A stretch of 46,854 nucleotides of DNA from a virus (lineage: Duplodnaviria > Heunggongvirae > Uroviricota > Caudoviricetes), in the IMG/VR virus record IMGVR_UViG_2548876964_000013, positions 1-46,854 of that record. The stretch is one strand, 5' to 3'. A program made the position numbers. Positions 39,001-42,000 of the stretch are shown here, in pieces (position 1 is the stretch's first letter; every line of letters begins with the position of its first letter).

Positions 39001-42000
39001 CGCCACTATCGACACAGTGGGAATTGAGCTCGTTAAATATGGTTGTAACACGTTTATTTGTCCCGACAATTCGATGGAGCCGGGAAATGTACCACTATAT
39101 ATCGGCCTGCCACGAATTGATCCAGCAAGCCAGACTGCCAAGCTGTCATTCCAGGAATGGTTGTCAGAACAAAAAGAAAAAATAGACGTTGATTGCGGAT
39201 GTGTAAGCATCGAAACGCTTACGCACTGGATGAAATCCGCTTATGAGGCTGGTAACTCTCCGGTAACTCCGGATAGTTGGATAAGCTGTAGTGATCGAAT
39301 GCCTGAAAAGGGCCAGAACGTGCTTATTTCGGTGAATTTCGATAGCTCTCTGGTTGAACCGCTAATATGCTCCGCACGCTATACCGGAAGCACCTTTCGG
39401 CGCGGAGATGCAACGATTAAGCCGGGTAATGGTATTGAGCAAGCAACTCACTGGATGCCGCTACCAGAACCGCCGCAGGAGGTTAACCGTGGCTAACCTG
39501 CAACTTGGTCAAAGGTGAATAAGAATCCTCGCACTCGCGGGGATTTCTTTTATCTGAACTCGCTACGGCGAGCTTGAGAGGTTAAAACGATGAAAAATAA
39601 TGTAATGAAAAATGGAACTATCGACAGCCAGGCTCTGTTGAAAATGGTGAATGAAGCGCGGAGACTGTGCGGTGAAAAAGAAGTACGCAACAACGACTTC
39701 ATTGCACGCATCAAAGATGAACTTGATGGGGGGGGGTTACGAAATTTTCGTAACCCCCATGGATAAGAAAAAAGGCGGTGCGGATCAGGTTGTTATTGTG
39801 ATGACCTATAAACAAGCGCTTCGGGTTGCCGCTCGTGAATCTAAATCCGTCCGTCGTTCGCTGGTCGATCAACTGGAGTCAATGCAACAGCAACTGCAAC
39901 AAAAAATCACCTCGAAACATTCGACTAACGGCCTTGAGGAATTCCGTAAAGCACGGGCGCTGAAAATGACCGTCGATACAATGAAAGACCTTTTCGGCTT
40001 CCTCCCCAACCTTGCCCCTGAAGCTAAACAAGTCGTTGCCGCCAGCCTGGTTAATCCCGTTGTAGGCGCTAACGTAATCCCGCTACCGATGATTAATGAA
40101 CATTACTATTCGGCGTCAGAAGTTGGAGCAAAACTCAAAATATCCGCTAACAAGGTTGGTCGCATTGCCAATACCTACATGCTCAAAACCGAACAATACG
40201 GGAAATGGTTCATCGACAAATCCCCGTATTCGGATAAGCAGGTAGAAAGCTTCCGATACAATAATCGGGGAGTACGGAAGATTGAAGAAATCCTGGACGC
40301 GGAGAACAACGCAGAATTCGGAACCTGATATCCTCCACTCTCCGACGCCGCCAGAATGACGGCGCGGTGGTTAAGCATGAGGCGAAATTTCTGCCGGGCG
40401 GTATTTTGTTGAGAGATGAGATACGTCAACTTCTCTTTCCGCTTTTTCAAGGCTCCATGCCGTCTGGAGACGAATCCATGAAGACGGAGTTCCCCCCAGG
40501 ACAGCAGCGAGACGAACAGCCATTTCAGGAGATATTGTCGCATTACCTGAAACCAGTCGCTGAACAGTGGAAGGCGCGACATCAAGCGCTCTTGCCAGTT
40601 CCCTGATTCCAATATTCTGATCTTCCAGAATATCAGCAATAATTTCTCCAGGATGAGGGGGGGTAAACATCGCCATTAGTGGTAATCCTCGTAGTTAAAC
40701 GAAGCGGATCTGGAGTTTTTCCCTGTAGCACGGGCGAATTTTTTCAACGTTGCAAATGATGGCCTTATTTACACTCAATGGTTAATTCTTTCCTGTTAAA
40801 TCCCTGTTCCTTTAAAATGTCTTTATATCCATTTTTACATAGGGCATTGGCTTTATCATAGCATACTCCCCATGGTGTAGCGGCACCACAGGCAATGATG
40901 TACTGTTCCTTTTCATCTCCGCGATTTATTTTCGTAGTGGTAGTGCATCCTGATGTTGCCATGCAGAAAATTATCAAATAAAAGAACCTTGCTATGATGT
41001 TCATTATCGGATCTCTAATAGGTGCTGCAAGTGACACTATTCCCATACCTGGAGCAGTTTGTTAGTGTGGCACTTCATATGCCATGCAGATTAGTTCCGG
41101 GCGCGAATCTCAGAGCGAACCTGTGAAATGGAGTGCCCTTTGCCTAGGTTCTCACGAATAGCGTCGAGTGGCGGCGCGGCTGAGTGTATTAACCACGCTT
41201 CCATTGCTTTGTCGCGTTCATTCAGTGCACGAAGCCCTTCACGAATAACTTCGCTTTCTGAAGCGTATGCACCGGAAGCCACACGGGCGCGCACCATGTC
41301 AGCCATTTCGTTGGTTAATGTAATGCTGAATTGTTGGGTTGTACGCATGTTAAACCTCACTGAGTAGGATAGAACACTATTCGATGATAGCACGCCACTT
41401 GTTGACGACAACACATATCCGGGATTATATTCTTCGCACGGTCGAGTTGACCGTCGGGATTCGAACCCCGGATAGAAACCGCGACAGAGACACGCCGCGA
41501 GCGTGTTTTTTATTGTCGTATGCACGCGCACATCTGAATTATGGTGGGGCGTATAGGGGAGCTGAAAAGCTCGCCGGTTGGTTTCCCGGTAGTTCGAACC
41601 CTGTACGTCTCACCACCCGATGATTCGAACCTAACGGTGGTGATAGTTTAGAAACCACTCGAGGGCGTCATAATGACAACTCAAGTTTCTGTTGAAACAC
41701 TCTCCACGATTACTTACAAGCAGATCCCCGTTATCACTACCGAACTTTTGGCGCACCTTTACGGCACAGAAGCTATTCGTATTCGCCAGAATCACCACGA
41801 AAACAAAGGTCGTTTCATTGAGGAAAAACACTTCTTCAAACTTGAAGGTGAAACTTTACGTGAGTTCAAGCACAGAGTAGCTTTTAACTACTCTGTGAAA
41901 ATCGCCCGTAACGTTCGCTCCCTCATCCTCTGGACAGAACGCGGCGCAGCCCGTCACGCAAAAATGCTCGAAACCGATCGGGCGTGGGAAGTGTTCGAAA

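Follow-up and report, generated by a model that had tools for sequence, protein, structure and literature searches.

Positions 40371 to 41348 of the virus sequence IMGVR_UViG_2548876964_000013 (46,854 nt, analyzed over its full length and referred to here as the window) carry two antitoxin-like genes, parD and higA, on either side of a gene for a small lipoprotein, and neither antitoxin gene has a partner toxin gene. The window corresponds to an Stx2a prophage of the PA2 type (Oslovirus), with integration at tRNA-Arg(cct) (45655-45729). How did these three genes come to stand together, and what does the locus do? A sequence-only reading of the window had proposed that the two DNA-binding proteins regulate a superinfection-exclusion lipoprotein comparable to Cor and Llp or, alternatively, that the three genes form a noncanonical toxin-antitoxin (TA) arrangement. 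We consider it probable that the locus consists of decayed TA modules and an acquired lipoprotein gene within one operon expressed in lysogens, with the lipoprotein as its sole payload. Decayed TA modules and morons are both known kinds of element, and the locus is not a new system.

The three minus-strand open reading frames (ORFs) on which that reading was built, for a ParD-like ribbon-helix-helix (RHH) protein, a lipoprotein and a HigA-like helix-turn-helix (HTH) protein, were present as described and were recognized by family models and by a lipobox. The parD gene (41091..41348, minus strand) encodes an intact 85-aa RHH antitoxin of the ParD family (TIGR02606, 53.4 bits, cutoff 46.2; PF03693, 32.7 bits, cutoff 21, E = 1e-7) that has no partner toxin. 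Related parD genes are paired: in locus L076 (ParD 94% identical at the amino acid level), an intact 103-aa ParE (PF05016) begins 5 nt after parD, Salmonella prophages (L003-L006; 86% identity) carry an intact 99-aa ParE 5 nt downstream, and an Enterobacter relative likewise has an intact ParE (PF05016) at this distance. A parD-parE pair occupies the same site in phage ArgO145 and in approximately 308 of 5,426 E. coli genomes. In the window, the frame that opens 5 nt past the parD stop (41062..41085, minus strand; ATG GCA TAT GAA GTG CCA CAC TAA) reads MAYEVPH*, whereas ParE of L076 starts with MAYEVIITPE. Because the two frames agree over MAYEV and parE homology (41085..41072) ends at 41072, five parE codons survive. 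No ParE gene was found adjacent downstream of parD; the ATG and four homologous codons are followed by two unrelated codons and a stop, against a ParE of 99-103 aa in the relatives. The breakpoint at 41072 was shared by all DNA comparisons (ArgO145, Salmonella, L076 and the approximately 308 E. coli genomes). Compared with the parDE modules of lambdoid prophages (ArgO145, Salmonella; PF03693/TIGR02606, PF05016), the window has kept the parD sequence, the 5-nt spacing, the parE start codon and the orientation of parD, which is likewise divergent from an ORF6N operon headed by IsrK and a C4-type RNA, but parE ends after codon 5, the toxin is gone and a foreign lipoprotein cassette stands in its place.

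A similar picture was obtained for higA (40371..40676, minus strand), which encodes an intact 101-aa HTH antitoxin of the HigA family (TIGR02607 equivalog, 87.2 bits, cutoff 47.7), again without partner toxin. Over 40346..40698, the DNA of E. coli ES5 is 99.2% identical to that of the window, and ES5 encodes an intact HigB of 92 aa that ends in ..NYEDYH*, its stop overlapping the higA ATG; a Cronobacter prophage also carries higBA, with a HigB of 92 aa. Upstream of higA in the window, no complete HigB ORF was found, only the last seven higB codons (40676..40698, minus strand; ..NYEDYH*), whose stop overlaps the higA ATG (TAATG). It had been stated that there is no room for HigB here, and this is confirmed by a gap of no more than 88 nt between the lipoprotein stop (40765) and the higA ATG (40676). 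Relative to higBA (TIGR02607 HigA, PF05015 HigB-like; ES5, Cronobacter), the window has kept the DNA identity, the TAATG overlap and the ribosome-binding site (GAGGA, located within the higB stump), whereas the higBA promoter region is gone, so that higA must depend on read-through.

Between the lipoprotein gene and the higB stump lies the 3′ end of a third antitoxin gene, of the HTH type (40695..40762, minus strand; approximately 22 codons, PSFATLKKFARATGK...). This tail (40762..40693) is 94.4% identical to positions 2501..2571 of L073 (Shigella phage 75/02 Stx), the 3′ end of a gene for an HTH "transcriptional regulator" that follows a Gp49-type toxin gene (PF05973) in that phage. In the window, it is frameshifted by one A missing in an A-run, and it meets the higB stump at a common TTAAC. 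Three different junctions were found upstream of higA, in the window, in L076 and in SCU-104, which means at least three independent losses of higB in which the start of higA was spared. In L076, a higB stump is followed by no more than the first 24 nt of the truncated higA coding sequence.

These comparisons show that illegitimate recombination has removed every toxin gene, leaving parD with five parE codons, the frameshifted tail of the third antitoxin gene and seven higB codons fused to higA. Re-annotation yielded no complete ParE or HigB ORF, only the five-codon parE 5′ stump and the seven-codon higB 3′ stump, and the two antitoxins are true orphans, as had been claimed, their toxin genes being reduced to stumps. 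Such toxin-first decay is expected of TA modules, since loss of the antitoxin is lethal while the toxin is active. A HigA homologue (71%) in the Salmonella islands L016-L018 stands beside a type I restriction-modification methylase, with no HigB called upstream, and appears to be another orphan in a different kind of mobile element.

Comparison with loci L072, L073, L074, L075 and L076 places the locus as the present content of a cargo slot (approximately 40372-41401) between a conserved hairpin and the ORF6N operon, which would be under IsrK/C4 control. The hairpin (40346..40366, unstranded, GC-rich) lies between higA and a convergent plus-strand gene ending at 40328, and its folding energy is −26.1 kcal/mol for 66 nt (z = −2.4). 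The hairpin side of the slot was conserved in ES5, SCU-104 and 75/02, and the IsrK side (41402 rightwards) in ArgO145, ES5 and SCU-104. The content varied: higB-higA in ES5, a Gp49-type toxin with an HTH antitoxin in 75/02, RelE (PF06296) with an HTH protein and an orphan higA in SCU-104, parD-parE in ArgO145, and parD-parE followed by the higB stump and 24 nt of higA in L076. Judged from these alignments, the slot behaves as a hotspot for the exchange of TA modules and morons next to an antirepressor-type control region.

The arrangement itself is well conserved among its carriers. A region of approximately 1.5 kb around the cluster was 99.9-100% identical in PA2, PA8, VT2phi_272, phi346 and many Japanese Stx2a phages, with 100% identity to PA2, VT2phi_272 and phi346 (the last compared over 40200-41700). 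At least 80% of the region was covered in 44 phage records, at 99-100% conservation, and the full parD-lipoprotein-higA mosaic was found in 42 of 5,426 complete E. coli genomes, again 99-100% identical. The arrangement is thus not a product of chance. A report of 2025 on the Stx phages phi346 and phi349 lists "two orphan type II antitoxins (ParD, HigA)", suggests an anti-defence role for them and leaves their function open; the orphan antitoxin genes have no DefenseFinder anti-defence listing (PMC12502783). The genes are the same as those described here, but the available part of the report gives no account of the toxin-gene stumps or of the origin of the lipoprotein (PMC12502783). As far as the searched literature shows, the base-level origin (four gene stumps, a defined slot and repeated loss of higB) is added here, as are the correct start of the lipoprotein and its membership in a large unnamed family with a P22-like position downstream of mnt.

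One reading of these data is that the orphan antitoxins are the selected cargo, serving an anti-addiction or anti-defence function against the ParE and HigB of resident prophages or of TA-based abortive infection systems of the host, and that the lipoprotein is incidental. Both antitoxins are intact and close to alleles paired with live toxins (higA 99.2% identical to that of ES5, ParD 94% to that of L076), related parDE modules occur in approximately 308 of the 5,426 E. coli genomes, the higA start was kept each time higB was lost (although higA of L076 is itself truncated), and the authors of the 2025 report have proposed an anti-defence role for them (PMC12502783). Against this, any TA module that decays neutrally is expected to lose its toxin first, a second parD-like locus was found in only 5 of the 42 carriers, and the missing DefenseFinder listing mentioned above points the same way. 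In addition, the C-terminal, toxin-binding third of ParD differs at approximately 13 of 38 positions from the common 88% allele, which makes cross-neutralization by ParD uncertain. We regard selection for the antitoxins as unlikely to be the explanation of the locus; an anti-defence or anti-addiction role is compatible with the decay of TA modules around an acquired lipoprotein gene and is not required by the data.

The gene between the antitoxin genes has a different source. The segment 41062..40758 was 84.6% identical at the DNA level to positions 4943..5245 of the P22-like contig L019, and contig L020 matched likewise. In both contigs, the gene for the lipoprotein (82% amino acid identity) follows a gene for a protein of 121-150 aa and is located between ejection-protein genes (gp7, gp20, gp16) and the tailspike gene. 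The window retains the last 13 codons and the stop of this upstream gene (41015..41062, minus strand), which read CSRYGNSVTCSTY compared with CSKYGNNVTCSTY in L019; the tail retains the sequence just before the lipoprotein ATG, and the translation-initiation region arrived intact. GC content is 0.38-0.42 across the cassette, against approximately 0.50-0.55 in parD and higA. The lipoprotein gene is missing from the same slot in ArgO145, ES5, SCU-104 and 75/02. A fragment of approximately 300 bp shared with P22-like phages thus brought both the lipoprotein gene and the tail of its former upstream gene, and parD, the lipoprotein gene and higA are all intact, each with its native translation-initiation region. 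The three genes lie on the minus strand and the genes on both sides on the plus strand, the opposite orientation that had been described. By its foreign origin, composition break, patchy presence and orientation against the surrounding transcription, the lipoprotein gene qualifies as a horizontally acquired moron, in agreement with the sequence-only reading.

The product of the former upstream gene in the P22-like contigs (L019:4538-4987, and L020; 121-150 aa) gave a weak, subthreshold match to the BamE domain (PF04355, E = 3.8e-4). Stx podophages of the PA2 type have been reported to use BamA as receptor. A role for the upstream gene and the lipoprotein as a pair related to the beta-barrel assembly machinery is a speculative thought.

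The lipoprotein gene (40765..41004, minus strand) starts at the ATG at 41004 and encodes 79 aa. This is the start used by the P22-like homologue, and it yields a proper signal peptide with a PROSITE-type (PS51257-type) lipobox match, LIIFCMATSG|C, and Thr at position +2. The spacing of 44 bp that had been given between parD and the lipoprotein gene fits an upstream in-frame ATG at 41046, which would give 93 aa; the protein of approximately 79 aa that had been described begins at 41004, 86 nt after parD. Public records contain at least five starts for this gene (65, 70, 79, 90 and 93 aa); the 65-aa form has no signal peptide, and homologues fit the 79-aa form alone. The mature protein has 60 aa and four further Cys, and its AlphaFold2 model (predicted local distance difference test score 86.7) has a beta-beta-alpha-beta-beta fold. 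The ratio of nonsynonymous to synonymous substitution rates (dN/dS) was 0.19 in the comparison with L019; in the comparison with the P22-like locus L021, synonymous sites were saturated and dN was 0.12. On these rates, the gene is real and under purifying selection relative to its P22-like homologues.

This bears on a second alternative, that the locus is an inert scar of three genes without present function, which persists only because the PA2-type lineage is young and clonal. The 99-100% identity among the 44 phage records and 42 genomes would have left no time for decay, and as all carriers are near-clonal, the antitoxins may be inert in this way. For the lipoprotein gene it is improbable because of the purifying selection (dN/dS 0.19, with synonymous sites saturated relative to L021). 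The lipoprotein translation-initiation region is also intact, and both antitoxin ORFs keep their native ribosome-binding sites. As an account of the whole locus, we find the inert scar improbable.

To place the lipoprotein, close relatives were collected in a word-indexed search, which found only three clusters, and their profile was used for an exhaustive HMMER search. At E ≤ 1e-3, the latter gave 235 cluster representatives, of which 37 also passed E ≤ 1e-10; with few exceptions, they were proteins of 70-120 aa from diverse Proteobacteria. In an alignment of 60 members, the lipobox Cys and Cys39 were invariant and Cys48, Cys56 and Cys78 were conserved at 90% or more; the lipobox was found in 58 of the 60, and exactly four further Cys in 53. 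The residue at +2 was T, A, S, V, I or L among these members and never Asp. Under the Lol rule, in which the +2 residue decides sorting and residues other than Asp lead to the outer membrane, the window lipoprotein is predicted to reside in the outer membrane. Scans of the lipoprotein against Pfam, NCBIfam and PHROG gave no match of known function, and its PHROG matches were of unknown function only. A Pfam scan of the 60 members hit only the generic lipid-attachment model, in two of them, and the family profile, searched against PDB sequences, had no match better than E = 0.17. Source names of cluster members were "hypothetical protein" or "lipoprotein" only. Among 50,697 phage records searched with tblastn, matches to the lipoprotein were confined to PA2-type Stx phages.

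Neighbourhoods were compared at 27 family loci, where 102 flanking ORFs were called by a simple longest-ORF procedure, clustered and scanned against Pfam and PHROG. No protein family occurred in more than two of the 102 ORFs, and no conserved partner of the lipoprotein family was found among them; HTH_3 was seen in two. Contexts were either phage (tailspike, small terminase, Rz, Rha) or chromosomal (AcrB, FliF, DctM). Given the mixed contexts and the lack of a shared neighbour family at these loci, the lipoprotein gene stands and moves alone. In the P22-like loci L021 (81% homologue) and L027/L028 (53%), an Arc/Mnt repressor gene immediately precedes the lipoprotein gene; the repressor of L027 carries both an Arc domain and a Repressor_Mnt domain, and the repressor gene of L021 is divergent from an arc-ant pair.

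The neighbourhood data also address the proposal that ParD and HigA evolved as dedicated regulators of a receptor-blocking lipoprotein in a functional exclusion system. The three genes are on one strand and probably share one promoter, and the order of an RHH gene followed by the lipoprotein gene recurs with Arc/Mnt in two P22-like lineages. However, stumps of parE, higB and the third antitoxin gene lie between the genes, so that the juxtaposition of antitoxins and lipoprotein is a product of recombination; near-identical antitoxin genes occur elsewhere in intact TA pairs, and no RHH or HTH partner is conserved across the 27 loci. The supposed kinship with Cor and Llp did not hold either. Cor (HK022, phi80, N15) and Llp (T5) are superinfection-exclusion lipoproteins that inactivate FhuA. 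They share with the window lipoprotein a small size (approximately 60 aa when mature), Cys residues and encoding by a moron, and outer-membrane placement is predicted for the window lipoprotein; its gene, by contrast, is not beside a receptor-binding protein gene in this phage. In hhalign comparisons, the 60-sequence profile aligned with HK022 Cor and T5 Llp over only 26 and 21 columns of the signal peptide, respectively, without similarity in the mature domain, and the Llp structures 8a60_B and 7qjf_A were not among the structural matches listed for the lipoprotein model. A dedicated module of this kind is very unlikely. A noncanonical TA pair with the lipoprotein as toxin, restrained by ParD, HigA or both, would fit the position of its gene in the places of parE (after parD) and of higB (before higA), but is hardly credible, because a protein predicted to be exported and lipidated would not meet cytoplasmic DNA-binding antitoxins, family members occur alone without an antitoxin-like neighbour or any conserved partner at the 27 loci, and stumps of the canonical toxin genes are visible.

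Under the preferred reading, decay of TA modules around an acquired lipoprotein gene, the locus would work as follows. A promoter-like site upstream of parD (41384..41411, minus strand; TTGTCG-16 nt-TATCAT with TG) is the only such site on the minus strand, and there is no minus-strand terminator-like site inside the cluster, which makes a single parD-lipoprotein-higA operon probable. Leftward transcription would start at this parD promoter and end at the hairpin after higA, and the lipoprotein gene would be under this promoter for no other reason than that it took the place of parE. ParD may still repress the promoter; ParD proteins repress their own promoters without ParE, as RK2 ParD does. 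In residues 1-47, the DNA-binding half (41208-41348), the window did not differ from the closer alleles of E. coli and Salmonella, and Cronobacter and more distant alleles showed one or two differences. This half has been kept although synonymous divergence (dS) reaches 0.34-0.47, and the C-terminal third is variable, which suggests a common operator specificity among the ParD alleles. The result would be a low, steady production of the lipoprotein in lysogens. The protein would be exported, lipidated, sorted to the outer membrane and closed by two disulfides. The orphan antitoxins would be remnants, with ParD at most an autoregulator and both at most neutralizers, in trans, of related ParE and HigB toxins.

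Several points weigh against this account. The parD promoter is no more than a match to the consensus, and a search of 41340-41450 found neither a repeat nor a palindrome usable as a ParD operator. The hairpin after higA has no U-tract and is a candidate terminator at most. The carriers of the mosaic are so similar (99-100% identity) that selection on the orphan antitoxins since toxin loss is not measurable. A second parD-like place was found in only 5 of the 42 carrier genomes, so that a role of ParD against a resident parDE is not general.

What the lipoprotein would do in the envelope can be approached from its P22-like relatives. In P22, the gene order is sieA-orf59a-mnt (PMC10883804), and the lipoprotein gene of L021 and L027 is in the position where P22 has sieA. 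In comparison with the immI region of P22 (mnt and arc-ant) and sieA, the P22-like lipoprotein gene lies between ejection-protein and tailspike genes and, in L021 and L027, directly after the Arc/Mnt gene; that of the window follows an RHH gene whose divergent neighbour is an ORF6N (antirepressor-type) gene under RNA control. The likeness does not extend to the proteins: SieA is an inner-membrane protein unrelated in sequence to the lipoprotein, ParD of the window is a TA antitoxin and not Mnt, and sieA is an exclusion gene, whereas the lipoprotein gene is a candidate for one at most. The exclusion-type function that had been proposed for the lipoprotein stands to the extent that this position fits an envelope function expressed in lysogens; kinship with Cor and Llp in the mature domain does not support it. 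Because the closest relatives lie just downstream of mnt, at the sieA position, and by analogy with other prophage lipoproteins, we tentatively suggest that the lipoprotein serves lysogenic conversion at the level of the envelope, most probably by interfering with other infecting phages, a proposal that we hold with clearly less than even confidence. The alternative role would be a Bor-like host interaction or another envelope function.

A broader scheme is also conceivable, and we rate it as unlikely. The lipoprotein family would be a new class of prophage-expressed outer-membrane exclusion factors, repeatedly captured downstream of constitutive RHH repressor genes in regions of antirepressor control (mnt in P22-like phages, parD in the window). 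Its target in Stx podophages would be either DNA delivery, at a periplasmic step, or an outer-membrane receptor such as BamA. As a by-product, the orphan ParD, acting at the back-to-back promoters, would link expression of the lipoprotein to the IsrK-ORF6N-methyltransferase operon, on which spontaneous induction of the Stx phage depends.

The region to the right of the slot (41402..41672, plus strand) is flanking backbone, forming the slot edge and not part of the cargo. It comprises a plus-strand promoter-like site (41402-41431), whose −35 element is back-to-back with that of parD, followed by IsrK (41438-41511, plus strand; 53 bits) and a C4-type antisense RNA (41537-41620, plus strand; 70 bits), both identified with Rfam. 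The ORF6N gene (41673..42350, plus strand) follows directly, and then come a gene at 42406..42837 and an intact MT-A70 methyltransferase gene (42834..43460). The layout is of the same type as IsrK-orf45-anrP in Gifsy-1 (PMC4825925). The ORF6N gene and the two genes after it correspond, in position and product, to gp7/PNB-1, gp6/PNB-2 and the gp5 MT-A70 methyltransferase of phiPA8, and the phiPA8 methyltransferase raises spontaneous induction and virulence (PMC10810198). A tRNA-like motif upstream of parD (GGTTCGAATCC) was considered as a remnant of a tRNA or attachment site and rejected; ARAGORN found no tRNA, and Rfam assigned the place to IsrK and C4 on the opposite strand. A 79-aa ORF (41384..41623) that corresponds to an annotated coding sequence of phi346 overlaps with both RNAs and is unlikely to be a real gene.

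To the left of higA, the "antirepressor" (39590-40328, plus strand) looks chimeric or frameshifted. A 58-aa ORF (39590..39766) resembles, by eye, the N-terminus of a phage regulatory protein and is in another frame than the 225-aa ORF at 39651..40328, whose match to phrog_1726 is confined to the C-terminal part of that family. The counterpart in SCU-104 is a single 261-aa BRO-N gene, and its homology to the window is broken between 39859 and 40146. The window also carries a phage tRNA cluster (22805-23056, minus strand) with Arg-tct, Arg-tcg and Met-cat.

The locus provides a base-resolved case of TA decay in prophages, in which the toxin is lost first and, here, repeatedly. It shows how illegitimate recombination refills a cargo slot that lies beside an antirepressor control region, and the inconsistent public annotation of the lipoprotein start is corrected. 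Unless a phenotype is found for the lipoprotein or for the orphan antitoxins, the importance of the locus in practice is limited. The widespread and little-studied lipoprotein family is a testable candidate for lysogenic conversion or phage exclusion in the Stx2a phages, of clinical importance, of E. coli O157:H7 and other Shiga toxin-producing E. coli.

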